Shown: one piece after another, positions 11,300 through 64,000 of the stretch
How positions within the stretch are numbered: position 1 is the first letter of the stretch
Layout of the letters: each line of letters starts with the position of its first letter
Assembly (NCBI GenBank): GCA_964016885.1
Contig: OZ024742.1
Span: 94,364,001 to 94,428,000 of the forward strand
From: Eledone cirrhosa
Taxonomy: Eukaryota
DNA: 64,000 nucleotides
Reading direction: 5' to 3'
Notes under the pieces: model-generated
Database searches by the model: none
What the model was told of the DNA's origin: nothing
The model's input: the letters and a program-made list of their open reading frames with translations, nothing else
Program-made: the position numbers and the translations under genes

Positions 11300-15620
<4,321 letters not shown>

Positions 15621-20899: not shown

Positions 20900-23226
20900 C
20901 TTCCTAAAAACTAACCTTCTCCTAAAGTTACCCATTTCCCCACACGCCACCATTGCTGTTTGATGGGTGGACTGCGGAATTTGGAAAGTCTAAACACTCA
21001 ATGACAATGTCACAGATAAAGATAAATTCACCTCCCGCCGCCAGGAATAGACGTATTCGACGACAGAAGAGGCCTATCTTGAGGAGAAGATATATGGAAG
21101 TTGAAGGACCCCATAGCCTGTGACAAATTTAAAAGCTTATTACTTGATGCCTTTGACAATAAGGAAGAGCAATTAGAGACGTGCAATATAGAGGGACAGT
21201 GGGAATTCTCGAAGGTGAACCTGCTGAAAGCAACGGATGAAATCTGTGGCTGGAGCATATCTATTGGCAGGAGGAGAATAACTTGGTGGTGGAACAGTAA
21301 GGTGGAGGAGACAATCAAGGCGAAAAAGCAGACTTGGAAAGTATGGCAGAATGGGGGAAGTAAAGAACACTATCAAGTGGCCAGGAGAGAAGCTAGGAGA
21401 CAAGTGTACCTTGCAAAAATGGAAGCAGGGGATAGAAAGTTCAAGCTTGTTCTACAACGTGAGGACCAAAAACGTGATAGGGGAAACTATAGAGGCATTA
21501 AGTTAGTTGACTAGGTCATGAAGGTCACAGAAATAGTTATACCACAGATGCTCTTTTCCTTGTATGACAACTACAGGAGAAGTACCGAGCAAAAAGACCC
21601 GGAGAAAGCCTTTGACAGAGTCCCCACTCCATTATCTGGAGGGCTCTTAGAAAACTAGGTGTAGATGAAAGGCTTGAGAGAGCTATACAAGCGATGTATA
21701 AAGAAACAGTCAGTAAGGTTAGAATTAACAATGAATATTGTGAAGAATTTAGTGTAAAAGTTGGTGTTTATCAAGGCTCTGTCCTTAGCCCCTTCCTATT
21801 TATTAGTGTCCTTCAGGCTATATCAGAGGTGTTCAAGACCGGCTGCCCATAGGACCTCCTATACGCAGATGATCTAACTCTCATAGCTGAATCTATGGCT
21901 GAACTAGAGAAGACATTCCAAACATGGAAGAATGGCCTATATTCAAAAGGCCTTAAAGTTAACTTGTCTAAGTTCTAGTTTGTAGAAAGGAAAATATGGC
22001 ACAGGTGCCCTCAGGGAAATGGCCATGCTCAGTGTGTAGGAAAGGAGTAGGGAGAAACTTCATTTTATGTCCCAAATGTAAACTATGGGTTCATAAAAGA
22101 TGTAGTGGGATCACAGGTAAACTATCTAAGAACGTAGAATTTATATGTGGCCAATGCTCAGGTGCAATAAGCAGCAAGTGCCCACAGGATACTAGCTCCT
22201 TCTATTGCCCACATGGTTCTATAGAAATAGTGGACACTTTCCGTTACCTGGGTGACAAAATCAACAGTGGTGGAGGGTGCTCTGAAAGTACAGTAGCCAG
22301 AGTCAGAATGGGATGGAAACAGTTCAGAGAGCTTATACCGCTGTTGGCCACTAAAGGTTTCCCTCTAAAAATGAAAGGTAGATTGTATGATGCCTGTATA
22401 CAGCAATGCTACATGGCAGTGAGACATAGGCATTGCCTGCGGACGACCTGCGCAGACTGGAGAGGAACGAAGCATGCATGCTCCGTTGGATGTGTAATAG
22501 TAATACACGTGAACGCCAAAGCATAAATGAACTAAGTGAGAAATTAGGAATAAGAGGGATCAGATGCTGTTTACTTGAAAGAAGACTACGTTGGTATGGT
22601 CACGTGATGCGCATGAAAGACGACAGCTGTATAAAAAAGTGCAGGCCGATCAAATTTGATGGTAGTTACGGAGTAGGTAGACCTAGAAAACCTGGAAGGA
22701 TTTGATAAATTCCGACCTTACACACTTGCACCTCTCTAAGACAATGTCACTGGACCGAGATCTTTGTCGCTACTCAGTAATAGAGAAGGCCCGCTTTGCT
22801 TATGTACAACGCGAAACCTACAGTCCGTAGGCACCTCTTATCCAAATATACACCCCAATCCACTACCCCTACCATATCCTCCCACACCCACAATCACCAC
22901 CCTCCCTCTGTAAAGTTGGTTCCACAACATCCAGTCCAAATAAATGAGATAATGAGATCAAGATCGAGATCGTGTAGGTGTCACGACAAAAAAAAAGAAT
23001 ACACACACAGTCCACGCTGTAATGTGGCCGTGTAGGTAACACGGTGCAAAATTCCCAGTTCCACACTATAAATGTGACAGCCAGACGTAGAAAATCTGCC
23101 AGATAGTCCTATATGAGTGAGACACGGTCACCCAACCAACCTTGCCTCAAGTGGGACAACTCCCGTCTAACCCATGTTAGCGTGGAAGATGGACGTTAAA
23201 CGAAGATGATGATGATTATGATGATG
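20900..23226 (+). mobile_element. Internally deleted RTE LINE
   Basis: TWWWN, RGNYRGIKL, YADD region, PHD-like finger, 3'UTR and (GAT)n tail. Deletions and frameshifts relative to the intact copy. Confidence 0.9.
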
Positions 23227-23526: not shown

Positions 23527-24097
23527 TGAAAAAATGGGGAGAAGAATACTGCAGGTTGCACATGGATAACATGTTATAAAATGAGTCCCTCATCAGTGAT
23601 TTGCCAACGATCATAGATATTTCATTGCATTAAAAACCATATACCTCACGTTGGTGCAATAATAACTAAATTAAGTTATTAGGACAATTAAAACGCGTAA
23701 AGCGAGTGAGACAAGTAAACAACAAAGAGAAAAGCTAACCGTAGATAGGAAGAGGCACAAGCTACATAGTTATTCTGTCAGCATAAGCTAGGTGAATATA
23801 TGAGCGCGTAGAAAAATAGACCTTTCGAGATGAATTCAATGTAAGAAAGAAGGAAATTGTTTTCATCGCGAACGAGGTGAAGTGAGAAGGGGAGAAACAG
23901 TGAGTGAGTGAGTGGAAGTTTGAGGAAGAGGTCAGTAGAGAGAAAGTGTTAACTGACATGACAGAGGGGGCGAAAGAAAGTAAGAGAAACAGAGAGAACG
24001 AGGGAGCAGTAAGAGAGAGAGAGAGAAAAACAGAATCGCAGTTTAGGTAAATATATGTGAAAAATGGGGAGAAAAATACTGCAGGTTGCACATGGAT

Positions 24098-24101
<4 letters not shown>
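23527..24101 (-). mobile_element. Non-autonomous ~530 bp tandem-type element carrying the k-turn/hammerhead motif
   Basis: Terminal 45 bp repeated at 23527 and 24058. Embedded in (TA)n. Homologous to 28290-29057 in the opposite orientation. Confidence 0.7.
23578..23654 (-). ncRNA. Candidate rewired hammerhead ribozyme with kink-turn
   Basis: CCAACG-T-GA-GGTAT-A-TGGTTT-ttaatgcaat-GAAA-TATC-TAT-GA-T-CGTTGG-c-AAATCA-CTGATGA-gggactcatt. Confidence 0.65.
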
Positions 24102-28000: not shown

Positions 28001-28236
28001 TATAAACGTTTGAATATGTGTAATAAAGCCAAAACAATGCAGGTATGGACATAGAAAAAAGAATGCAATTGTAAAAGATATTGTTGAGAATTCGTCCTTT
28101 ACCTTGAATTTATTTAAATGTCTTCATTAAATAAATTCAAGGTAAAGGACGAATTCTCAACAATATCTTTTACAATTGCATTCTTTTTTCTATGTCCATA
28201 CCTGCATTGTTTTGGCTTTATTACACATATTCAAAC

Positions 28237-28243
<7 letters not shown>
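28001..28243. repeat. Perfect inverted repeat, 117 bp arms and 9 nt loop
   Basis: 28001-28117 matches the reverse complement of 28127-28243 with no mismatch seen. Confidence 0.93.
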
Positions 28244-28289
<46 letters not shown>

Positions 28290-28293
<4 letters not shown>

Positions 28294-29053
28294 CCTTCTC
28301 TTTCTCCACACAACTCTTTTTATCCCAGTAACTTATTTTAGTTATTGTATCGCCCTAGGCGGAGGTATATTGTCTGTAATGCGAAGAAATACCTATGATT
28401 CCTAGTAGACAACTGATTATGGATATTCCTAACTTCTATTTCTAATTCGTCATTTTTTTATACTTAAGTGCAACAACACAGCTCGCCATTTTTGATTCAT
28501 ATATGCTTCCCCCTTCGTTGTGACCTGTCTTTTTTCTCTTCCTTTGCAGCTATCCTCATTCTCTCACTCCTTCTCCCTCTTACTTTCACTCACCCCCTCT
28601 GCTAGTCACCCTCTCTCGGCTCGCCTCTTCCTCACACTTTCACTCGCTCACTCTCTGCTACTCACCCTCTCTCTCACTTCCCCCATTGTCCCACACTACG
28701 CGGCCTTTCTTCTCGCTCACACCCGTACGGTTAAGATGTGTCTTTGTTCTCCTCGTCAAAATTCGCCTGTTCTTATGTTCGAAATGAATTATTGACTTGA
28801 TTTTTTGATATTTTCCTCTCTTTACGTTGCCTCACCATTCGTGTCTGTTTACCTGCGCTCTTTCTCCAGCCAACTCTTTTTATCCCAATAACTTATTTTA
28901 GTTATTGTATCGCCCTAGGCGGAGGTATATTGTCTGTAATGCGAAGAAATACCTATGATGCCTAGTAGACAACTGATGATGGATATTCCTAACTTCTATT
29001 GCTAATTCTTCATTTTTTATACTTAAGTGCAACAACACAGTTCGCCATTTTTG

Positions 29054-29057
<4 letters not shown>
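28290..29057 (+). mobile_element. Non-autonomous tandem element (560 bp period), retrozyme-like
   Basis: ~187 bp direct repeats at 28311-28498 and 28871-29057, CT-rich spacer, (TA)n on both flanks, structured motif in each repeat. Confidence 0.8.
28915..28990 (+). ncRNA. Candidate rewired hammerhead ribozyme with kink-turn (mutated copy at 28355-28430)
   Basis: CTAGGC-G-GA-GGTAT-A-TTGTCT-gtaatgcgaa-GAAA-TACC-TAT-GA-T-GCCTAG-t-AGACAA-CTGATGA-tggatatt. Confidence 0.65.
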
Positions 29058-33915: not shown

Positions 33916-34258
33916 TGTTACATAATATAATGTTCCATATATTGGTTTTTACTATGGTGCCTTGGTTACATCAGCTGTCAGCCATACTCAAGCAGTATTC
34001 ATCTGTCGATGCTGCATTGTGTGAGATCTGCCTATGGGTAACAAGAAGGCTGCCAAAGGGCATATTTACCTTACTAATTAGAGGGTGGTTTCAGGGGATG
34101 TAACTTCTCGAGAGATTAGAGATTGTGTGTATTTTATAGTTATGTGCTAGTATTTAAATTATTTAATTGAGAGACAATGTAGGGGAGGTAACTCATAATT
34201 ATCGAGTTGTTCATAGCAATTTAACTTATTAGCTACAATTAGAGATGGGGCTACATGA

Positions 34259-35137
34259 CTAAATTGGGTCAAAAACTCTATTGGAGAAGGAATTAGCCCT
34301 TCGATGTTGACAGCTAATGGTTACCTCCGTTCTATCGTTAATTGGTAGAGGTCGTGATAGAGTTATGTAATATGCTTCCGTAACACAGAAATCACAATAT
34401 TTCCTTCGTCCATTGAACGGTTGGGCCCTAGCTACGATATCCCATTTTAGTGAGTGTTGAACTTTGTTTAATTTAAGGTTTTTAATGAGCCTAGCTAGCG
34501 ATGTCGAACATCTGTTGCTAGGGTCTCGGAAGGAAAAAGAGTGCGCGTTATAGCGTACCTTAAAAGGGTTAGAGGTAGATCCGATATAAGAGCTGGTATT
34601 CGAAGCAGTCTCAACTGTGCACCTATAGACTATGTTGGGTGTCAGGCAGTGTCCATTTAATGGGCATGCATTGGGGTACCGGCAGCTGCAGTTGCTTCTG
34701 CGGTTAGTGAGAGTAGGGTTGTTTAACCTAAGCAGTTGGTCCGTGCTAGAAGGATTAGATGGGGGAGGTGTGCTACTAGAGTAATTATTGGTGTAGTGGC
34801 GTGGTGTATTTGATAGGGGTGGTGGTACCGCGGTGTGGGAGTTATACTGTCTTAGCTTATGATGGTTACTGAACGCGATGTGGCTAGCTAGGTTAGGTGT
34901 TGTGGAGAATGAGAATTTAATGTTATTTTTATTAAAGAGTTTGTAATATTTATGGTTAGGGGGGAAGTGTTTGGATAGGATAGAGAAGAAGCGATTGGGG
35001 ATATTAGTGGCTAGATTAGATGAGAATGGTGGGTTAAGCCAGGTGATATTTCTAGGTCTATTCCTTCTAGGGGTTCTAGTGGAGTTGGTAGGGGCCTTCC
35101 TAGGGTTATTATTACCTGGGGCTTTGTTATTTGTCAT
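34259..35137 (-). CDS. Inverted partial PLE ORF (linker and GIY-YIG)
   Basis: 292 aa, nearly identical to the C-terminal part of 35198-36823. Confidence 0.8.
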   Translation of the reverse strand: MTNNKAPGNNNPRKAPTNSTRTPRRNRPRNITWLNPPFSSNLATNIPNRFFSILSKHFPPNHKYYKLFNKNNIKFSFSTTPNLASHIAFSNHHKLRQYNSHTAVPPPLSNTPRHYTNNYSSSTPPPSNPSSTDQLLRLNNPTLTNRRSNCSCRYPNACPLNGHCLTPNIVYRCTVETASNTSSYIGSTSNPFKVRYNAHSFSFRDPSNRCSTSLARLIKNLKLNKVQHSLKWDIVARAQPFNGRRKYCDFCVTEAYYITLSRPLPINDRTEVTISCQHRRANSFSNRVFDPI

Positions 35138-35197
35138 CCACTAGCCCTAGCCACCACCAACTCGGACATAACCAACAATGAGATTAACATCATACTC

Positions 35198-36823
35198 ATG
35201 GCTAGGCAGACTAGCATTGAATTCAACGGAGCACTCTGGACTAGAAAAGATAGAACAGACAACTTTGACATTACGATGGGCTCAAGTGACTCCGCGCAAA
35301 TCACCGATTTAGTTGGGATTTACCTATTTGGTAACATCAGAGACGAAATACAACCCATGCAAGGTGGAATATACAGGGACGACGCCCTATTTGCAGTCCA
35401 CAATTGCATTAATCGGGGAATCGATTTGCTAAAGAAACAATTTCATAGATTCTTCAAACATAACGGTCTCTCTATCACCATCGAGCTGAACCATAAAGTA
35501 GTAAACTTCCTAGACGTCACTCTTGATCTCAACAATAACCTTTATAACCCTTACCATAAACCAGGCGAAATACTCACATATATTAGCTCACACTCTAACC
35601 ACCCACCGGCAGTCATCAGAGCAGTAATCAAATCTATCTCCTATAGGATCTCAATGCTATCAGCAAATGAAGAGATATTTATAAACCACGCACAATATTA
35701 TAATAAGGCTCTCTCTGAATCTGGTTATAAACAATCAATTTATTACATACCAAAATGCCATAACACAGCAATTCACCATACTAAACTTAACACTAGAACT
35801 AGAAATACCTTAGCATATAGCCAGATTCGCCGGAATTTTAGCAGTAACAGCACCTATACAGGGAACCTTAATGGTGGCAGCGGCCTGCTCTCCACTCTAA
35901 GTAGCAAACAAAGAATCAACCCTAGAATAGGAATGAGAAATGGGATGACAAATAACAAACCCCCAGGTAATAATAACCCTAGGAAGGCCCCTACCAACTC
36001 CACTAGAACCCCTAGAAGGAATAGACCTAGAAATATCACTTGGATTAACCCACTATTCTCATCTAATCTAGCCACTAATATCCCCAATCGCTTCTTCTCT
36101 ATCCTATCCAAACACTTCCCCCCTAACCATAGATATTACAAACTCTTTAATAAAAATAACATTAACATCTCATTCTCCACAACACCTAACCTAGCTAGCC
36201 ACATCGCGTTCAGTAACCATCATAAGCTAAGACAGTATAACTCCCACACCGCGGTACCACCACCCCTATCAAATACACCACGCCACTACACCAATAATTA
36301 CTCTAGTAGCACACCTCCCCCATCTAATCCTTCTAGCACGGACCAACTGCTTAGGTTAAACAACCCTACTCTCACTAACCGCAGAAGCAACTGCAGCTGC
36401 CGGTACCCCAATGCATGCCCATTAAATGGACACTGCCTGACACCCAACATAGTCTATAGGTGCACAGTTGAGACTGCTTCGAATACCAGCTCTTATATCG
36501 GATCTACCTCTAACCCTTTTAAGGTACGCTATAACGCGCACTCTTTTTCCTTCCGAGACCCTAGCAACAGATGTTCGACATCGCTAGCTAGGCTCATTAA
36601 AAACCTTAAATTAAACAAAGTTGAACACTCACTAAAATGGGATATCGTAGCTAGGGCCCAACCGTTCAATGGACGAAGGAAATATTGTGATCTCTGTGTT
36701 ACGGAAGCATATTACATAACTCTATCACGACCTCTACCAATTAACGATAGAACGGAGGTAACCATTAGCTGTCAACATCGAAGGGCTAATTCCTTCGCCA
36801 ATAGAGTTTTTGACCCAACTTAG
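35198..36823 (+). CDS. 5'-truncated PLE ORF: RT C-half, thumb and GIY-YIG endonuclease
   Basis: FDITMGS, GIYRDD, NFLDVTLDL, YHKP, SNHPP, CSCx5Cx5C, IVY..YIGST..FKVRYNAH, CDLC..E. Confidence 0.88.
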   Translation: MARQTSIEFNGALWTRKDRTDNFDITMGSSDSAQITDLVGIYLFGNIRDEIQPMQGGIYRDDALFAVHNCINRGIDLLKKQFHRFFKHNGLSITIELNHKVVNFLDVTLDLNNNLYNPYHKPGEILTYISSHSNHPPAVIRAVIKSISYRISMLSANEEIFINHAQYYNKALSESGYKQSIYYIPKCHNTAIHHTKLNTRTRNTLAYSQIRRNFSSNSTYTGNLNGGSGLLSTLSSKQRINPRIGMRNGMTNNKPPGNNNPRKAPTNSTRTPRRNRPRNITWINPLFSSNLATNIPNRFFSILSKHFPPNHRYYKLFNKNNINISFSTTPNLASHIAFSNHHKLRQYNSHTAVPPPLSNTPRHYTNNYSSSTPPPSNPSSTDQLLRLNNPTLTNRRSNCSCRYPNACPLNGHCLTPNIVYRCTVETASNTSSYIGSTSNPFKVRYNAHSFSFRDPSNRCSTSLARLIKNLKLNKVEHSLKWDIVARAQPFNGRRKYCDLCVTEAYYITLSRPLPINDRTEVTISCQHRRANSFANRVFDPT

Positions 36824-37190
36824 TCATGTAGCCCCATCTCTAATTGTAGCTAATAAGTTAAATTGCTATGAACAACTCGATAATTATAAGTTACCTCCCC
36901 TACATTGTCTCTCAATTAAATAATTTAAATACTAGCACATAACTATAAAATACACACAATCTCTAATCTCTCGAGAAGTTACTTCCCTTGAAACCACCCT
37001 CTAATTAGTAAGGTAAATATGCCCTTTGGCAGCCTTCTTGTTACCCATAGGCAGATCTCACACAATTCAGCCTCGACAGATGAATACTGCTTGATTATGG
37101 CTGACAGCTATTGCAACCAAGGCACCATAGTAAAAACCAATATATGGAACATTATAATATGTAACATTATTTTAATTTATATTCCTTTGA

Positions 37191-37311
37191 GTTCCGATGA
37201 GCCACTCTGTTTTTTTAAATATGTTAATTATTTTCAACTGAACCAGACCAATTATCATATATAGTCATCTGATCCAGAAATATTATATGGAGTAGCGAAA
37301 CAATTGTAAAC
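37191..37311 (+). ncRNA. Type I hammerhead motif with palindromic stem III and expanded stem II
   Basis: GTT-CCGATGA-GCCACTC-(~80 nt)-GAGTAGC-GAAAC-AATT-GTA-AAC. Confidence 0.6.
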
Positions 37312-37442
37312 GGACATTATTATTATTAATATTATTATTATTATTATTCTCTACATTCCTTACATCAAAGTAAAATATGTTGACAATCTTTTAATAATGT
37401 CTTTCTTGTGAAATTTGTGGACTTGTTTTGCTTAACTAATGA

Positions 37443-48730: not shown

Positions 48731-48896
48731 TAACAATTACAATGCACAGTATATATACTTAAGCCTCACTCATTGCCCAACTGAAACAGAAGCTCTGTAA
48801 TGAAAAGGTTAAATGAAATGGATGAACTATTGACTTTTGTTTTCTCACAAAACGTCTTTCTGCATTCTTTGCAATGTTTCCATTGTTTTTACATTT

Positions 48897-50362
48897 CATA
48901 ACAATGAATATTGTGAAGAATTTAGTGTAAAGGTTGGTGTTCATCAAGGCTCTGTCCTTAGCCCTCTCATATTTATTATTGCCCTTCAGGCTATAACAGA
49001 GGAGTTTAAGACCGGCTGCCCATGGGAACTCCTATATGCAGATGATCTAACTCTCATAGCTGAATCTATAGCTGAACTAGAGGAGAGATTCCAAACATGG
49101 AAGAATGGCCTAGAATCAAAAGGCCTTACAGTTAACTTATCTAAGACTAAAGTTCTAGTTTGGAGAAAGGAAAATAGGGCACAGGTGCCCTCAGGGAAAT
49201 GGCCATGCTCACTGTGTAGGAAAGGAGTAAGCAGAAATTCCATTTTATGTCCCAAATGCAAACTAAAGGTACGTAAAAAATGTAGTGGGATCACAGGTAA
49301 ACTATCTAAGAACGTAGATTTTATATGTCGCCGACGCTCAGGTGCAATAAGTAGCAAGTGCCCACAGGATACTAGCTCCTTCTATTGCCCAGATGGTTCT
49401 ATAGAAATAGTGGGTACTTTCCGTTCCCTGGGTGACAAAATCAGCAGTGGTGGAGGGTGCTCTGAAAGTACAGTAGCCAGAGTCAGAATGGGATGGAAAA
49501 AGTTCAGAGAGCTTATACCGCTGTTGGCCACAAAAGGTTTCTCTCTAAAAATGAAGGGCAGTTTGTATGATGCCTGTATAGGAACAGCAATGCTACATGG
49601 CAGTGAGACATGGGCATTGCGTGCAGAGGACCTGCGCAGACTGGAAAGTAACAAAGCATGCATGCTCCGTTGGATGTGTAATAGTAATATACATGAATGG
49701 CGAAGCATATATGAACTAAGTGAGAAATTAGAAATAAGAGGGATCAGATGCTGTTTACTTGGTATGGTCACGTGATGTGCATGAAAGACGAGAGCTGTAT
49801 AAAAAAGTGCAGGGTAATCAAAATTGATGGTAGTTATGGAGTAGGTAGACCCAGAAAAACCTGGGATGATTTGATAAAATTCCGACCTTACATACTTGCA
49901 CCTCTCTAAGACTGTCACTGGACCGAGATCATTGGCGCTATGCAGTAATACAGAAGACCCGCCTTGCCTATGTACAATGCAGTAGGCACCTCTTAACCAA
50001 ATATACACCCCAATCCACTACCTCTACCCTATCCTACCACTCCCACTAACACCACCCTCTCTCTGTAAAGTTGGTACCACAACATCCAGTCAAAATAAAT
50101 GAGATAATGAGATCGAGATCATGTAGGTGTTACAACAAAAAAACACGCAGTCCAGGTAACACGGTGAAAAGTTCCCAGTTCCACACTGTAAATGTGGTTG
50201 GTGTTAGGAAGGGCATCCATCCGTAGAAAACCACCCAGATAGTCCTATATGAGCGAGACACGGTCACCCAACCAACCTTGCCTCAAGTGGGACATCACCC
50301 GTCTAACCCATTCTAGTGTGGAAGATGGAAGTTTAGTGAAGATGATTATGATTATGATGATG
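48897..50362 (+). mobile_element. 5'-truncated RTE LINE
   Basis: [17 protein letters not shown]-like finger, 3'UTR and GAT tail (ORF 48837-49775). Confidence 0.92.
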
Positions 50363-56165: not shown

Positions 56166-57789
56166 TCATCATCATCATCATCGTTTAACGTCCATGTTCC
56201 ACGCTTGCATGGGTTTGGACGGGAGTTTACCCACTTGAGGCAAGAGTGGTTGTCTTGCTCGCATAGGACTGCCTGGCGGGTTTTCTACAGCTGGATGCCC
56301 TTCCTAACACCAACCACATTTACAGTGTGGGACTGGGAGGTTTTTACCGTGTTGCCTACACGGCCACATTACAGCGTGGACTGTGTATTTTTTTTGTCCT
56401 GACATCTACACGATCTCATTTGTTTAGGCCTGGATGTTGTAGCACCAACATAACTTTACATTGAAAGGGGCGGTGTGGATGAGGTGGGGGTGGTGGGACG
56501 GGGGTGTATTTTGTTAGAGATGCCTACTGACTGTAGTAGGTTTTACTTTGTATTTAGGTAAGGCGGGTCTGCTCTATTACTGAGTGCCGCCAAAGATCTC
56601 GGTCCAGTGACATTGTCTTGGAGAGGTGTAAGTGTGTGAGGTCGGAGTTTATCAGGTCGTCCCAGGTTTTTCTGGGTCTGCCTACTCCGTGGCTACCGTC
56701 TATCTGTATTGCCCTGCACTTTTTTATACAGCTGTCGTCTTTCATGCGCATTACGTGACCATACCAACGTAGCCTTTTCTCGAGTAAACAACATCTGATC
56801 CCTCTTATTTCTAATTTATCCCTTAGTTCGTTTATGCTTTGCCGTTCGCGTATATTACTATGACACATCCAGCGGAGCATGCAAGCTTCGTTCCTCTCTA
56901 GTCTGCGTATATCCTCTGCACACAATGCCCAGGTCTCACTGCCATGCAACATTGCTGTTCGTATGCAGGCATCATACAGCCTGCCTTTCATTTTTAGGGA
57001 GAACCCTTTAGCGGCTAATGGTGGTATAAGCTCTCTGAACTTTTTCCATCCAGTTCTGACTCTAGCTACTGTACTTTCAGAGCACCCTCCCCCACCGCTG
57101 ATTTTGTCACCCAGGTAACGGAAGCTGTCCACTATTTCTATAGAACCATCTGTGCAATGGAATGAGCTATTATTCTGTGGGCACTTGCTGCTACTTATTG
57201 CGCCAGAGCACTGGCCACATATAAAATCTATGTACTTAGTTAGCTTACCTGTGATCCCACTACATCTTTTATGCACCCATACCTTGCATTTGGGACACAA
57301 AATGGAGTTTCTACCTACTCCTTTCCTACAAACTGAGTATGGCCATTTCCCGGATGTGAACGGTGCCCTATTTTCCTTCCTACAAACTAGAACTTTAGTC
57401 TTAGACAGGTTAATTTTAAGGCCTTTTGATTCTATGCCATGGTTCCATGTTTGGAATTTCTTCTCTAGTTCGGCCATTAATTCAGCTATGAGCGTTAGAT
57501 AATCTGCGTATAGGAGTTCCCATGGGCAGCCGGTCTTGAACTGCACTGTCATAGTCTGAAGAGCAATAATAAATAATAGGGGGCTAAGAACAGAGCCCTG
57601 ATGAACACCAACTTTTACGCTAAACTCTTCACTATATTCGTTGTTAATTCTAACCTTGCTGACTGTTTCTTCATACATGGCTTGTATAGCTCTCACAAGC
57701 CATTCATCAACACCTAGTTTTCTAAGAGCCCACCAGATAATGGAATGGGAAACTCTGTCGAAGGCTTTCTCCAAGTCGACAAAAGCTAA

Positions 57790-57790
<1 letters not shown>
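56162..57790 (-). mobile_element. 5'-truncated RTE LINE
   Basis: ORF 56554-57774 (YADD changed to YADY), 3'UTR and tail, between (TA)n blocks. Confidence 0.93.
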
Positions 57791-57881
<91 letters not shown>

Positions 57882-57899
57882 ATATATATCAATATAGTT

Positions 57900-59525
57900 A
57901 TAACAACCCCCCCACTAGAGAGCACTAACAAGTTTGATTTAGAACGTAGGACGATGGAAAGCATCCAGCAGATAGCTAATTCCATACACCAGAGTATAAC
58001 TGTAACTATCGACTTCCCTTCCAAACACCCTAACAATAGACTACCTGTATTAGCCACAGAACTCTGGATTAACACTATAGACGAGAGAGCCCAAATTCTC
58101 CACTCACACTATGCTAAACCCATGGCCTCCAAATACCTGATACTCAAAAACTCAGCAATGTCCAGTAGTGCTAAGTTTAATATTCTGATCGCAGATTTGG
58201 TACGAGTGATGAAGAATGTGTCCCGCATGTGCAACCCAACAGAAATGGAAAGACACATCCAACACTTCATCAACCGCATGCAGTTCTCTGGCTACAACCA
58301 AAGAGACAGAGTCAGAGTATACGAAGGAGCCATGGAGAAGTATAAGACCCTCATAGAACTGGACATGAAAGGATTTGCCCATTATACAGGAGCAAATCAT
58401 GGAATAGCTTAGATAGGGCTAGACATAAGATAGGGAAAGCCACCTCATGGTACGACAACCAGAGATACCAGAGTGTCATGTTTGTGGACGCTACCCCTGG
58501 AGGGAAATTAGCTAACCAGTGTAGAAAGGCCCTGAGAAAGACCCACTTAAAAATAAAGGTGGTAGAAAAGCCAGGAACCACCATAAAATCCCTGATCAGC
58601 AAAACATACCCTTTTAAGAAAACCCACTGTACCAATAGGAAATGTATCATATGTAAGGTGAACCCCCGGATAAACTGTAAAACTAGAAACGTAGTCTATA
58701 GCATAAGATGTACAGAGGGTACATGCAGAAACATGACAACAACATACATAGGCGAGACAGCTCGTAGCATAGGTGAAAGGATAGACCAACACTGGAGGAA
58801 ACTAAAAGGACGAAAAAACGGGTCAGTACTATACGAACATGCTAGACAACAACATGACGGTAACATAGACAACATAGAAATTAGAATAATATCTAAACAT
58901 AGAAATGACCCAGCAGATAGGCAAATCAGAGAGGCCAGTGAAATAGAAATTAGAAGACCAAGACTGAACAGAAAGAATGAATGGAATAACAACAACACCC
59001 AAACAAACAACACTGACCTAAGAGAAGTATAAATAAGTAAATAAAATAAATAAATAAATAAATAAATAAATACATACACAAGCACAATAACAACAAGCAC
59101 ATAAACACACACTAGTCACCCATCACACAGCAAACAAAACACTATACACACACGCAAACGCATGCGCAAAGAAGACAAAATAAAATAAACAAACAAGCAA
59201 ATCAATAAATAAATATATAGACAGACTGAATAAAAATGGCGTAGACATACAATACAACAGGAGGAAAATAGAGCACCACTGACGATGTTGCAGATGTGCA
59301 ACGAAAGATTTAGGATAAACTATATATATGTGTTTGTGTCTATATTGTATCTGTATTATTTTTGACCGTCGGTCAGTCAATGGCAACATTGAGGACCGAG
59401 TAAGTTAGATTACCGAGATAAAAGACACAGAAGCGAAAAACAGAAACCAACCAAACAGTGAGTGTGTTCTGTTATTAATTCTGGCAATATTACACAAATA
59501 TGACCCTCCCCAAGTATAACAATAT
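57900..59525 (+). mobile_element. 5'-truncated PLE family B (RT thumb, GIY-YIG, pLTR)
   Basis: ORFs 57954-58412 and 58478-59032, separated by a frameshift. Terminus CCCCAAGTATAACAATAT. Confidence 0.9.
59272..59325 (+). ncRNA. Hammerhead-like motif in family B pLTR
   Basis: CTGACGA-T-GTTGCA gatg TGCAAC-GAAA with perfect stem II. Stem I not evident. Confidence 0.5.
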
Positions 59526-59755: not shown

Positions 59756-62700
59756 TATCATCATCATCATCATCATCAACGTTTAACGTCCGTGTTCCAC
59801 GCTTGCATGGGTTTGGACGGGGGTAGTCCCACTTGAGGCAAGAGTGATTGTCTTGCTCGCATAGGACTGTCTGGCAGGTTTTCTACAGTTGGATGCCCTT
59901 CCTAACACTAACCACATTTACAGTGTGGGTCTGGGAGGTTTTTACCGTGTTGCCTACACGGCCACATTACAGCGTGGGCTGTGTGTTTTTTTGTCGTGAC
60001 ACCTACACGATCTCATTTGTTTCGGCCTATGGCGCGGCACCAACATAACTTTACATAGAACGGGGTGGTGTGGATGGGGTGGGGGTGGGGGTGGTGGGAC
60101 GGGTGTATTTTGTTAGAGATGCCTACTGGTTGGAGTAGGTTTTACTATATATTTAGGTAAGGCGGGTCTTCTCTGTTACTGAGTACCGCCAAAGGTCTCG
60201 GTCCAGTGACATTGTCTTGGAGAGGTGTAAGTGTGTGATGTCGGAGTTTATCAGCTCGTCCCAGGTTTTTCTAGGTCTGCCTATTCCGTGGCTACCGTCT
60301 ATCTTTATTGCCCTGCACTTTGTTATACAGCTATCGACTTTCATGTGCATCACGTGTCCATACCAACGTAGCCTTCTCTCGAGTAAACAACATCTGATCC
60401 CTCTTATCTCTAATTTTTTCCTTAGTTCGTTTATGCTTTGCCGTTCACGTATATTACTGTTACACATCCAGCGGAGCATGCAAGCTTCGTTCCTCTCTAG
60501 TCTGCGTATATCCTCTGCACACAATGCCCAGGTCTCACTGCCATGCAGCATTGCTGTTCGTATGCAGGCATCGTACAACCTGCCTTTCATTTTTAGGAAG
60601 AACCCTTTTGCAGCTAATAGTGGTATAAGCTCTCTGAACTTTTTCCAACCAGTTCTGACTCTAGCTACAGTACTTTCAGAGCACCCTCCCCCACTGCTGA
60701 TTTTATCACCCAGGTAACGGAAGCTGTCCACTATTTCTATAGAACGCTCTGCGCAATTGAAAGAGCTAGTATTTTGTGGGCACTTGCTGCTACTTATTGC
60801 ACCAGAACACCGGCCACATGTAAAATCTATGTTCTTAGTTAGCTTACCTGTGATCCCACTACATCTTTTATGCACCCATACTTTGCATTTAGGACATAAA
60901 ATGGAGTTTCTACCTACGCCTTTCCTACACACCGAGCACGACCATTTCCCAGAAGGGACCGCCGCCTTGTTTTCTTTCCTACAAACTAGAACTTTGGTCT
61001 TAGCCAGGTTAATTTTAAGTCCTTTTGACTCTAGGCCGTGCTTCCATGTTTGGAATTTCTTCTCTAGCTCGGCCATTGATTCCGCTATGAGTGTCAGGTC
61101 GTCTGCGTATAGGAGTTCCCATGGGCAGCCTGTCTTGAACTCCTCTGTTATAGCCTGAAGGGCAATAATAAATAGTAGGGGGCTGAGAACAGAGCCCTGA
61201 TGGACGCCAACTTTTACGCTAAACTCTTCACTATATTCGTTGTTAATTCTAACCTTGCTGACTGTTTCTTTATACATGGCTTGTATAGCCCTCACAAGCC
61301 ATTCGTCAACGCCTAGTTTTCTAAGAGCCCACCAGATAATGGAGCGGGGGACTCTGTCGAAGGCTTTCTCCAAGTCGACAAAAGCTAAGTAGAGGGGTTT
61401 ACCTTTAGCTAGGTACTTCTCCTGTAGTTGTCGTACTATGAGAAGAGCGTCTGTGGTACTTTTGCCTGACACAAACCCGAACTGCATTTCATCTAGGTCG
61501 ATTCTCTCTCTGATTAGTTGCGCTATTACTTTTTCCGTGACCTTCATGACCTGGTCGATTAATTTAATGCCTCTATAGTTACTCCTATCTAGGGCGTCTC
61601 CTTTACCCTTATAACAGTTAACGATGATGCTGCTATGCCAGTCCTTCGGAACAACCCCATTCTGTACGACTTGGTTAACTATGCGGGTGACCATGGTGTG
61701 TCCCACCGTGCCAGATGCCTTCAGCATCTCAGCAACTATTTCCGAAGGCCCAGCCGCCTTACCCGTCTTCATATCCTTGATTGCCTTACTTATTATACTC
61801 CCCTCGACTAACACTGCTGGTCCCTCTATTGGGTCGATATGGGGGAGACTGTCTTTGTCCCATTTATTCTCCTCATTTAGTAGCCTTTCGTAGTGACACT
61901 TCCAAGCTACCTTCTTATCAGCGTCGGTGATGGCAAGTGTGCCATCGTCGTTTAGTACACACTTCTCCCCGACAATATCACGGTTTTCCTTGACGCATTG
62001 CCTAGCAATCCTGAACACCTCACGTTTTTGGTCATCGCGTTGTAGAACATGCTTGAACTTTCTTTCCTCAGCTTCCCTTCTTGCTAAGTACACTTGTCTC
62101 CTAGCTTCCCTCCTGGCCACTTGATAGTCTTCTCTACTTCCCCCATCCCGCCTTACTTTCCAAGCCTGCTTTTTGGCCTTAATTGACCCCTCCACCTTAC
62201 TGTTCCACCACCATGTTACTCTCCTCCTGCCTACAGGCCTGCTCCAGCCACAGACTTCGTCTGTCGCCAACAGCAGGTTTGCTTTCAGAAATTCCCACTC
62301 TCCCTCTATATTGTCCGACTCTAAATGTTCTTCCTTACTGTCGAAAGCATCAAGTAATATGCTTTGAAATTTATTCCTGGCTGTGGGGTCCTTTAGCTTC
62401 CATATTTTTCTCCTGAGGATAGTCCTCTTCTGCTGTCGAGTACGTCTCGTCCTGACTATGAGGTCGCTAATTATCAGTCTATGTTGGGAGGTGCATTCTT
62501 CATGGGGGAGGGATTTGGTGTTTACAACAGACACTCTGTCACGTCTTCTGGTAAGGATATAATCTACCTGGCTTGTGTGTTCCCCGGATCTATAGGTGAT
62601 CAGGTGATTGTCACGTTTTTTGAAGTTAGTGTTACAGATAGTTAGGTTATTTGCATCACAGAATTCCAGGATTCTGGAGCCTTCCTCATTTCTAGTACCA

Positions 62701-63485
62701 AACCCATAGCCTCCATGGATTTCGTCGTAGCCGTCACAATGTTGTCCAACGTGACCATTTAGGTCGCCTGCAATAATTATATAGTCACTGTGGGATATTT
62801 GGGAGGTAATTAGCATCAGTGTCTCATAGAATCTGTCTTTTATAGTGCCGGGCAGTCCGGATTGGGGTGCGTACGCAGATATTACTGTCACCGTAGTTCT
62901 ATTGAGGACAAGTCGTATTTTAATTATTCTGTCGTTCACTCTATTTACGTCTATTATCTTATCTGCCCACTTTTCCGCTACCATGATTCCTACTCCACCC
63001 AGCCCATCGTCGTTTCCCACCCAGAAAAGCTTATAACATCGTTTTTTACCCTCAATGAATCTAGCAGACCCACCCCTCCACCTGGTCTCTTGAATACAAC
63101 AAACATCGACCTCCTTACGTTCAAGCATTTCTACAACCTCGTTAGCGCGACCCTTTAGGGTGCCTACATTTATGGTACCAACTCTGAAGTTTTGGATTGC
63201 GTTTGGGGGTTGGGGGCGGTGGGGGGCGGGGGGCGATGGGGTTATGTTAGCCGTCCGCGGTCGAAACAATGAGGAGTGCTCGCATTCTCGTCCAAGAGGT
63301 GAACTTGTCTTTATCTTTGGCATTGCCGCTGAGCGTCCAGATTTTTCTCTCTCTCTCCTCCACTTTCCAGGATTCCGCAGTCCATCCATCCATCCATCAT
63401 ATATCGAAAGGCAAGCGATAGTATAGGCCTCTGGCTTCTGATTGGTCCGCGTAATAATAATACTGGTGATGCGTGGGGGCTCTGG

Positions 63486-63487
<2 letters not shown>
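59756..63487 (-). mobile_element. Full-length, apparently intact RTE-clade LINE
   Basis: Short 5'UTR, single uninterrupted ORF, 3'UTR, (GAT)n tail at 59757-59778. Confidence 0.95.
60153..63389 (-). CDS. RTE LINE polyprotein: AP endonuclease, reverse transcriptase and internal PHD-like zinc finger
   Basis: 1078 aa. TINVGTL, IQETRW, YAPQ, GDLNGH, DYIL, SQH; [37 protein letters not shown]; CxxC..CxxC..HxxC..CxxC at 60807-60938. Confidence 0.95.
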   Translation of the reverse strand: MDGLRNPGKWRREREKSGRSAAMPKIKTSSPLGRECEHSSLFRPRTANITPSPPAPHRPQPPNAIQNFRVGTINVGTLKGRANEVVEMLERKEVDVCCIQETRWRGGSARFIEGKKRCYKLFWVGNDDGLGGVGIMVAEKWADKIIDVNRVNDRIIKIRLVLNRTTVTVISAYAPQSGLPGTIKDRFYETLMLITSQISHSDYIIIAGDLNGHVGQHCDGYDEIHGGYGFGTRNEEGSRILEFCDANNLTICNTNFKKRDNHLITYRSGEHTSQVDYILTRRRDRVSVVNTKSLPHEECTSQHRLIISDLIVRTRRTRQQKRTILRRKIWKLKDPTARNKFQSILLDAFDSKEEHLESDNIEGEWEFLKANLLLATDEVCGWSRPVGRRRVTWWWNSKVEGSIKAKKQAWKVRRDGGSREDYQVARREARRQVYLARREAEERKFKHVLQRDDQKREVFRIARQCVKENRDIVGEKCVLNDDGTLAITDADKKVAWKCHYERLLNEENKWDKDSLPHIDPIEGPAVLVEGSIISKAIKDMKTGKAAGPSEIVAEMLKASGTVGHTMVTRIVNQVVQNGVVPKDWHSSIIVNCYKGKGDALDRSNYRGIKLIDQVMKVTEKVIAQLIRERIDLDEMQFGFVSGKSTTDALLIVRQLQEKYLAKGKPLYLAFVDLEKAFDRVPRSIIWWALRKLGVDEWLVRAIQAMYKETVSKVRINNEYSEEFSVKVGVHQGSVLSPLLFIIALQAITEEFKTGCPWELLYADDLTLIAESMAELEKKFQTWKHGLESKGLKINLAKTKVLVCRKENKAAVPSGKWSCSVCRKGVGRNSILCPKCKVWVHKRCSGITGKLTKNIDFTCGRCSGAISSSKCPQNTSSFNCAERSIEIVDSFRYLGDKISSGGGCSESTVARVRTGWKKFRELIPLLAAKGFFLKMKGRLYDACIRTAMLHGSETWALCAEDIRRLERNEACMLRWMCNSNIRERQSINELRKKLEIRGIRCCLLERRLRWYGHVMHMKVDSCITKCRAIKIDGSHGIGRPRKTWDELINSDITHLHLSKTMSLDRDLWRYSVTEKTRLT

Positions 63488-63514
<27 letters not shown>

Positions 63515-63522
<8 letters not shown>

Positions 63523-64000
63523 ATACTTTGGGAGGGTCATGTTGCCAATAAAAAACACACGCACCAGTTGCTTTCACTTCTATTATATATTTATAAATTT
63601 ACAAATTTATAAATTTCTGGTTGGTTGGTTGGTTCCACAACCAGATAGTTGTTTATAAATATATAGTCATAGTTCTTTCGTCACACACTCTGTGACCTCT
63701 TCAGTGACTGGAGATTTCTTTCTTCGTTTCTGTGCCTTTCCTTTCTTCTATCCTACGCCATTTTGTTTGTGTGTGGGTTGCGTGCTCAGTTTGCGCATGC
63801 GCCACATCCGGGTGTCTGTGTGTGTTTGTGTTCATTTTTCTATTTTTCTATTTATATTTGTTTGTTTATTTATTTATTTATTGTTGGTTGGTTGTTTGTT
63901 CTATGTGTGTGTGTGTTTTCATTTTGTCTTGTGTGTGTTTTCATTTTGTGTGTGTTTTCAATTGTAAGTTGTTTGTTCTATGTGTGTGTGTGTTTTCATT
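63515..64000 (-). mobile_element. Divergent PLE family B pLTR, truncated by the window edge
   Basis: TTGTTATACTTTGGGAGGGTCAT terminus, CTACGCCAT and TGCGCATGCG motifs shared with 24880-25330. Confidence 0.65.

Follow-up and report, generated by a model that had tools for sequence, protein, structure and literature searches.

Two diverged insertions in a stretch of Eledone cirrhosa DNA (contig OZ024742.1, positions 94,364,001 to 94,428,000; 64,000 nt, hereafter the window) can be read as carrying a hammerhead ribozyme with its conserved blocks in an unfamiliar order, and the question raised by this locus is whether selection has acted on such an RNA or whether the likeness is fortuitous. The original prediction argued for selection on the strength of two sequences; a covariance model built in this analysis recovers exactly three ribozyme copies in the window, one of them without G8. 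Insertion A (23528-24100, minus strand) consists of ca. 1.08 monomers, i.e., a 530-nt unit and a 43-nt terminal repeat, is flanked on both sides by (TA)n and holds one intact ribozyme. Insertion B (28291-29057, plus strand) lies between (TA)n runs and comprises 1.37 monomers of a 560-nt unit from a divergent subfamily, with two ribozyme copies: B1 (28317-28427), which is likely inactive owing to the loss of G8 (CUGAUUA), and B2 (28877-28987), which is intact, with a predicted cut between 28929 and 28930. A scan of the window with Rfam returned 134 matches at E up to 1, among them no ribozyme and none at the three copies. The (TA)n in which insertion B is located adjoins an inverted repeat (28003-28240) centered on a hairpin (28083-28161, a sub-threshold MIR5038 match), and the end of this repeat resembles the 3' end of a Penelope-like element seen in another locus (L193).

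The whole predicted ribozyme of copy A spans 23582-23690 on the minus strand (121 bits against the covariance model, copy A being part of the training set) and includes four helices (Pa to Pd), a k-turn, stems I and III and the core. Read 5' to 3' it runs GGUAU-A, UGGUUU, a linker, GAAA-UAUC and AAAUCA-CUGAUGA, so that the block with the site (S) comes first, that with GAAA (G) second and that with CUGAnGA (C) last, an order that no circular permutation of types I-III produces. Block S (23639-23645) holds the stem III 5' strand GGUAU and A17, and the predicted cut, between 23640 (A17) and 23639, lies where it was originally placed; block G (23616-23624) holds a U, G12-A13-A14-A15.1 and the stem III 3' strand; block C (23585-23602) holds the stem I 3' strand, CUGAUGA (23596-23590), a variable nucleotide (23589) and the Pa 3' strand. 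The stem I 5' strand UGGUUU (23634-23639) would pair with AAAUCA (23602-23597) in a pseudoknot. Pd, the outer helix, joins CCAACG (23649-23654) to CGUUGG (23609-23604) and is separated from stem III by the k-turn, whose non-bulged strand (3n U, 2n G, 1n A) lies at 23646-23648 and whose bulged strand, UAU-GA-U, lies at 23615-23610. In the 5' leader, the Pa strand GUCC (23682-23685) faces GGAC (23588-23585) directly after CUGAUGA-N, the hairpin Pb (UAAUAACU/AGUUAUUA) occupies 23660-23681, and the Pc strand UUGC (23656-23659) faces GCAA (23628-23625) directly before N-GAAA, forming a second predicted pseudoknot.

The pairings originally listed for the two insertions can all be read directly in copies A and B2: CCAACG/CGUUGG against CUAGGC/GCCUAG in the outer helix, UGGUUU/AAAUCA against UUGUCU/AGACAA in stem I, GGUAU/AUAUC against GGUAU/AUACC in stem III, and U·U against U·G at the 3b·3n position of the k-turn, together with an upstream hairpin AAUAACU/AGUUAUU. 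Other claims need qualification. The spacing, described as identical, is so between the outer helix and CUGAUGA, where 46 of 66 columns agree, but the upstream linker is off by 2 nt; several letters described as invariant vary across the family (position 17, N7, the linker UAAU/UAAA, and L1 and 3b of the k-turn); and the spacer is diverged, as stated, yet homologous (66%, versus 76% for the ribozyme region, in 10 divergent monomers). Helices Pa and Pc had been missed, and neither the scale of the family nor its insertion pattern had been given.

The whole genome assembly (2,996 Mb in 1,796 contigs) was searched with exact patterns, which undercount copies. A 30-nt pattern for the 5' half matched 4,738 times, with none in the reversed control, and a pattern of 34 places for the 3' half matched 15,578 times against eight in its control, which bears out the claim that the motif is not a product of chance. 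The sampled loci (30 from the 5' pattern, 25 new ones from a further search and 60 of the 61 regions covering the first 100 matches of the 3' pattern) gave 158 motif hits, of which 133 were full-length, 121 distinct and 119 aligned, two copies (L027+ and L066) being left out for deletions in Pd; the sample was drawn from one contig (C1) and is biased toward copies that fit the search patterns. The same scans elsewhere gave no match in viral contigs, five in metagenomes and two in prokaryote genomes, and these seven were rejected as relatives, since all of them were without stem I and Pd pairing and had no model hit, and are taken as chance. Among the genomic copies, nine identical truncated ones spaced ca. 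50-60 kb apart at C1:143.3-143.8 Mb point to a large tandem array, and two further loci, L105 and L107, resemble a segmental duplication.

Each of the 11 core positions (C3, U4, G5, A6, G8, A9, G12, A13, A14 and the A15.1-U16.1 pair) is kept in 114-119 of the 119 copies; all 11 are intact in 100 copies, and the core together with stems I and III in 71. This retention spans subfamilies with unit identities of only 52-70%. Hammerheads tolerate variation at N7 and at position 17, G excepted. Here N7 is U in 109 copies and C in 10, and position 17 is A in 91, C in 28 and never G (part of the sample having been selected on A), in keeping with the NUH cleavage triplet.

The predicted fold has 34 pairs, distributed over Pa, Pb, Pc, Pd, stems I and III and one opposed pair. 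Across the 119 copies, 95.1% of 4,045 cells are standard-paired, against 26-42% after a shift of the partners by 1-3 columns, a comparison that favours the fold as it was derived from the same sequences. Variant pair types shared by at least four copies comprise 14 two-sided standard changes, 11 one-sided G·U changes and 11 that do not pair. When the same 68 real columns are re-paired at random 5,000 times, a null that preserves relatedness, two-sided changes number 3.2±1.5 (maximum 9, with none of the 5,000 reaching 14) and non-pairing types 26±2 (minimum 17). Among pair types found in only one or two copies, 81 of 100 are non-pairing, as neutral decay predicts. The pairings are thus maintained in the larger alignment, as the original prediction expected, but when all 5,995 column pairs were put to a tree-based test, none was significant on its own: the best three are Pd pairs (E of 0.83, 1.8 and 3.7) and those of Pa, Pb and Pc lie above 40, because the changes sit on few subfamily branches.

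The individual helices differ in how much they vary. Two-sided changes occur in five of the six Pd pairs, and stem I (96.6% of cells paired) has shared two-sided changes in three pairs; stem III is paired to the same extent (96.6%) with no shared two-sided change. Pb has three such changes and one shared A·C mismatch (22 copies). Pa and Pc have one shared two-sided change each: in Pa (95.8% paired), GUCC or AUCC, ca. 45 nt before the cut, pairs with GGAC or GGAU just after CUGAnGA-N, with G-C replaced by A-U in 25 copies, and in Pc (94.7%), UCGC or UUGC pairs with GCGA or GCAA immediately upstream of N-GAAA, C-G being replaced by U-A in 16 copies. At the distal junction, single nucleotides separate Pd from stem I and from Pc, and stem I and Pc are connected by 5 nt. 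Pa also appears in the single-sequence fold, and Pa-Pb-Pd-III is the predicted minimum-energy fold in two of three single copies. The folding energy of single sequences of the ribozyme strand, with pseudoknots not modelled, is not unusual (z of -1.1 to -1.7), and the opposite strand folds equally well or better (z of -2.2 and -5.4); energy thus does not fix the strand, which is fixed by the catalytic and k-turn letters. Taken together, the pairing, the shared two-sided changes and the core retention in 119 copies support the original suggestion that selection acts on RNA structure and on the hammerhead core, and we regard a working hammerhead as a very probable prediction.

The departure from the hammerhead scheme is concentrated in stem II. 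A multi-pair stem II between the strands after CUGAnGA and before GAAA was tried in two registers and rejected, with 35.6% and 16.8% of cells paired; these strands pair instead with the 5' leader, as Pa and Pc. The G10.1-C11.1 pair, nearly universal in hammerheads, is absent from its usual place. The original prediction had placed a 10.1-11.1 pair here, and the G·U of copy A and U-A of copy B2 are indeed opposed beside A9/G12, but across the family the two positions are A-U in 39 copies, G·U in 30, U-A in 20, C·A in 19 and A·A in 9, hence standard in only 89 of 119, and the assignment is uncertain. Either the opposed pair would be a loose 10.1-11.1 beneath a four-way junction, or the variable base would be an extra nucleotide and the conserved G-C that opens Pa would be G10.1-C11.1, with its C detached from GAAA. 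Extra nucleotides after CUGAnGA are described, in the accessible portions of the sources, both for Penelope minimal hammerheads (PMC4209133) and for published SGC ribozymes (PMC10085705). In either reading of the predicted fold, a block that Eckert et al. assumed to be uninterrupted is interrupted.

Between stem III and Pd, the predicted k-turn has a 3-nt bulge and tandem G·A/A·G pairs, with each G/A position kept in 115-116 of 119 copies, L2 A in all 119 and L3 U in 114. The 3b:3n pair is U:U in 59, U:G in 27, C:A in 11, A:G in 9 and A:A in 9, with U at 3b in 86 of 119, and most subfamilies combine 3b U with G:C at 4b:4n in box C/D-like fashion. From what is accessible of two structural papers (PMC5689011, PMC4382518), the standard k-turns Kt-7, box C/D and U4 share with this one the 3-nt bulge, the tandem G·A/A·G, C:G at -1b:-1n and U at L3, and with its main subfamilies also U:U at 3b:3n and G:C at 4b:4n; unlike them, it is embedded in a predicted ribozyme. 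For U:U with G:C at 4b:4n, folding is reported there to be impaired in metal ions alone and to require L7Ae or 15.5K (PMC5689011), and G at 3n or C at 3b to permit folding (PMC4382518). By these rules, copies with 3b U and G:C at 4b:4n would likely need Snu13/15.5K to fold, and hence to cleave, and the subfamilies may differ in what their k-turns need for folding. A kinked fold and the binding of an L7Ae-family protein are thus predicted. The literature searched yielded no natural hammerhead with a k-turn, and such a k-turn would offer a ready model for protein-controlled cleavage.

The repeat unit (G+C 42.5%) holds one ribozyme and is found in many dispersed copies that contain no ORF. Pyrimidines make up 68% of the ribozyme strand (C 29%, U 39%) in 24 natural monomers. 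Two sequencing runs gave only DNA-like coverage, which carries no information about expression. A tRNA in the unit was considered and rejected, the same 24 monomers giving one weak call without an anticodon. Tandem spacings without an internal TA run number 24 and measure 445-679 nt. A (TA)5+ run follows the predicted cut by 50-135 nt in 127 of 158 hits, in clusters at ca. 61-88 and 105-135 nt, and both clusters of 3' ends fall where the unit reads AUAU-like, which suggests target-primed starts. The 5' ends are variable: in 127 locus-strands they abut a microsatellite in 61, an inverted copy in 38 and other sequence in 28. A 40-nt tail is present on a single arm in 13 of 17 head-to-head pairs, with two of the misses representing one duplicated locus in which the tail is shortened. 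Penelope-like elements are described by Craig et al. (2021), in the portion available, as having (TA)n targets, partial tandems, an inverted 5'-truncated copy and a 30-40-bp tail on one end, and the same pattern is found here: a fixed 3' end in (TA)n, 5' truncation, an inverted partner and a one-arm tail. Potential sources of the machinery are abundant, as all 150 scored candidates (of 10,595) matched GIY-YIG elements, which occur in the window as well.

The window holds several other retroelements. Pfam did not recognize three of its Penelope-like fragments, which were identified by their visible GIY-YIG-type and RT motifs. Penelope-like 3' UTRs of the CX2-5CxxC linker family, each with an ordinary minimal hammerhead core, are seen at 59279-59320 (plus), 25112 (minus) and 27682 (plus), this core being composed of CUGACGA, an extra U, a 6-bp stem II and GAAA. 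A Penelope-like RT/GIY-YIG insertion at 33916-37440 has a 1,224-nt inverted partner, and its 3' UTR shows a hammerhead-like core (CCGAUGA at ca. 37194, with GAAA ca. 100 nt later). On the minus strand, 60153-63536 is an open LINE frame of 1,126 aa with endonuclease, RT and a PHD-like finger, which we take to be RTE-like; related broken copies lie at 12132-15167, 21083-22742, 48834-49775 and 56554-57888. The 3' tail of several subfamilies of the tandem element (e.g., those of L047 and L053) carries CGCCATTTT, and its complement, AAAATGGCG, at 59235-59245 of the window, precedes the Penelope-like hammerhead. This motif resembles a YY1 site, and it is possible that it is a clue to the promoter.

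If cut RNA serves as the template of retrotransposition, inserted copies should end near the cut. Searches for 5' ends gave raw counts of 148 (-36 to -28 relative to the cut), 358 (-14 to -8), 409 (-4 to +2), 1,323 (+3 to +12), 413 (+18 to +24) and 372 (+29 to +36), with zero in all reversed controls. By-eye inspection of the first 100 listed matches of each search indicated that ca. 57, 51, 97, 86, 65 and 83% were true truncations, from upstream to downstream, and the patterns covered fractions of 0.49, 0.56, 0.63, 0.63, 0.52 and 0.61 among 63 copies. Normalized for both and divided by window width, the 5' ends per nucleotide are ca. 19, 47, 105, 180, 74 and 63, so that the peak is centered 3-12 nt downstream of the cut rather than on it. 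It exceeds the level farther downstream ca. 2.5-fold and that upstream, where a loop is just as A/T-rich, 4-9-fold. The best microhomology to (TA)n is offered by the UAUA immediately upstream of the cut, yet this site is used less than poorer ones downstream, and since the RT would already have copied the partner strands at the peak, the fold should not stall it there. As far as a rough by-eye classing can carry it, the pile-up is an indirect indication of cleavage in vivo; alternatively, the peak could stem from template switching at UUUAAU. The pile-up also provides a genomic handle on the role of hammerheads in Penelope-type retrotransposition. Two further observations concern particular copies: a subfamily (L083, L100, L115) whose Pd 5' strand is longer by a nucleotide and whose site reads AUC makes up ca. 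35 of the first 100 listed matches in the -14 to -8 search, and a fold-back junction centered exactly on the predicted cut occurs in L121 (the same as L099; C1:29085146), with a similar fold-back pair at C1:293138710/293138725.

Could the ribozyme be real and nevertheless act in the form of a dimer, with domains swapped between tandem units or between molecules and with its blocks in conventional order? Copies are often in tandem, covariation is blind to whether pairing is in cis or in trans, and dimeric action is reported for metazoan minimal hammerheads in the part of PMC4209133 accessible to us. However, stem III has a full 5 bp and is continued by the k-turn and a 6-bp helix, single copies are in two of three cases predicted to adopt Pa-Pb-Pd-III as their minimum-energy fold, and the fixed distal linkers of 1, 1 and 5 nt recall those of monomeric SGC ribozymes, which are short as well; we consider such a dimer unlikely. 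An RNA that does not cleave at all would be harder still to reconcile with the data. It would be a box C/D-like signal for Snu13 binding, acting in stability or retrotransposition, with the hammerhead letters a relic or a coincidence, and its appeal is that CUGA and AUGAUG can also be read as boxes D and C, that the k-turn of the main subfamilies is box C/D-like and that stem II is abnormal. A protein-binding signal alone does not account for the retention of all 11 catalytic positions across subfamilies 52-70% identical, for a position 17 that avoids G, a variable N7 and a covarying stem I, nor for 5' ends that gather beside the predicted cut, and none of the three window copies has an Rfam snoRNA match; of the rival explanations we rate this one the least probable.

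A further alternative leaves the ribozyme untouched and concerns the element that carries it: the copies might be pseudo-LTR remnants of an autonomous Penelope-like family, rather than a free-standing non-autonomous family. Their insertion anatomy is the same as that of Penelope-like elements, most insertions of which are 5'-truncated, and Li et al. (10.64898/2026.07.22.740005), in the text available, derive retrozymes from pLTRs. Against this, full units are preceded by another unit, a microsatellite or an inverted copy, and the 28 unexplained 5' flanks of 127 share no upstream body. No model hit was found in 30 GIY-YIG loci, the five full hits obtained in 16 long-ORF loci proved to be insertions of their own, matching known monomers, and no autonomous partner with the same terminal sequence was seen in the 127 5' flanks and 46 GIY-YIG loci (of more than 10,000 candidates in the genome). 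A remnant origin consequently seems to us a little less credible than the dimer and not much more so than the protein signal.

The account that we prefer, and hold to be likely as a whole, is that of a retrozyme-like tandem element whose S-G-C hammerhead cuts after position 17 and which is copied into (TA)n in Penelope-like fashion. Each unit of this non-coding, high-copy retroelement would carry a hammerhead with ordinary stems I and III. Its stem II would be replaced by a four-way junction, in which at most one opposed pair lies next to A9/G12, Pc is likely stacked under the core, and Pa and Pb form the other stack. Stem I, Pc and Pd would meet in a second, distal three-way junction, to which Pd is probably brought by the k-turn bending stem III back, and the resulting closed cage would replace the usual contact between loops I and II. 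Read-through transcripts of tandem copies would cleave themselves into unit-length RNAs with 5'-OH and 2',3'-cyclic phosphate ends, some of which are likely ligated into circles by RtcB, a step that has been shown for type I retrozymes. A Penelope-like GIY-YIG/RT protein would nick (TA)n, prime at the AUAU motifs ca. 66 or 105-135 nt after the cut and copy the RNA, with cut linear templates giving copies that end just 3' of the cut and circular or uncut templates giving longer, multimeric ones. As a speculation, the motif could have originated through the loss of blocks from tandem type I units, so that S, G and C descend from different repeats. Predicted ribozymes often fail, as is illustrated by cleavage in only one of nine predicted retrozyme dimers in the available text of Li et al. 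(2026).

We put forward more tentatively, and with considerable doubt, that this is a seventh natural hammerhead architecture, outside the six block orders considered possible, with a stem II strand detached from GAAA, a k-turn cage and cleavage switched by Snu13/15.5K, and that similarly permuted ribozymes may explain the Penelope-like clades reported to be without hammerheads. If so, a natural protein-gated ribozyme would drive a repeat that ranks among the most abundant in an animal genome. Non-circularly permuted hammerheads were previously known from metatranscriptomes and metagenomes, not from eukaryotic chromosomes, and the literature searched (most subscription papers and the repeat databases lying outside its reach) made no mention of an S-G-C hammerhead in any eukaryotic genome; the element may be listed in repeat databases as an unclassified repeat. 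That more than 15,000 copies were missed by standard descriptors and Rfam implies that genome-wide ribozyme counts are incomplete. According to the accessible literature, the descriptors that led to the described animal retrozymes were those of type I (or III), to which the S-G-C order is invisible.

The closest known relatives are the type-SGC hammerheads (HRIMA-1 and the SGC variant; Eckert et al. 2023, PMC10085705), for which the accessible text gives 583 examples from metatranscriptomes, five of them cleaving in vitro at 0.007-0.19 per min, with an intact stem II of 5-6 bp and none in the genomes of known organisms. The predicted ribozyme described here has the same S-G-C order, all core nucleotides, a similarly short linker between stem I and the strand that precedes GAAA, and a third helix at the distal junction with stem I and the stem II arm. 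It differs in that stem II is split into a four-way junction, theirs being uninterrupted, and in the strands that build the brace: as far as that text goes, their brace helix uses the 3' tail, whereas here it is the 5' leader that supplies both the brace (Pd) and the distal partners of stem II, pairing as Pd with the strand that precedes stem I and, through GUCC or AUCC, as Pa with the tail. The split breaks the assumption, stated in the available text, that the three blocks cannot be interrupted. The predicted brace is, moreover, continuous with stem III through the k-turn, a concrete answer to the connection between stem III and brace whose geometry Eckert et al. found hard to explain (PMC10085705); the words "kink" and "k-turn" occur zero times in the accessible part of their supplement. 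Topologically, the predicted fold is that of an SGC ribozyme with its 3' brace strand joined to stem III by a k-turn and reopened inside stem II.

With non-LTR retrozymes, described in the accessible portion of PMC7229834 as non-coding tandem units of a few hundred nt that co-occur with Penelope-like elements and for which circular RNA expression has been shown, the element shares tandem units, low GC, one ribozyme per unit, thousands of copies and the company of Penelope-like elements (PMC7229834; Li et al. 2026). Their hammerheads are of type I, with the order C-G-S, and the S-G-C order found here sets the element apart from them. With Penelope-like elements of the Neptune/Naiad pattern, as far as described in what is available of Craig et al. 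(2021), it shares (TA)n targets, partial tandems, the inverted 5'-truncated partner and a tail on one end; unlike them it has no ORF, and their ribozymes are minimal and of type I, as in the 59279 element of the window. By its predicted fold and genomic pattern, the element is a member neither of type-SGC nor of the type I retrozymes as these are defined, and it would work like a hammerhead retrozyme.
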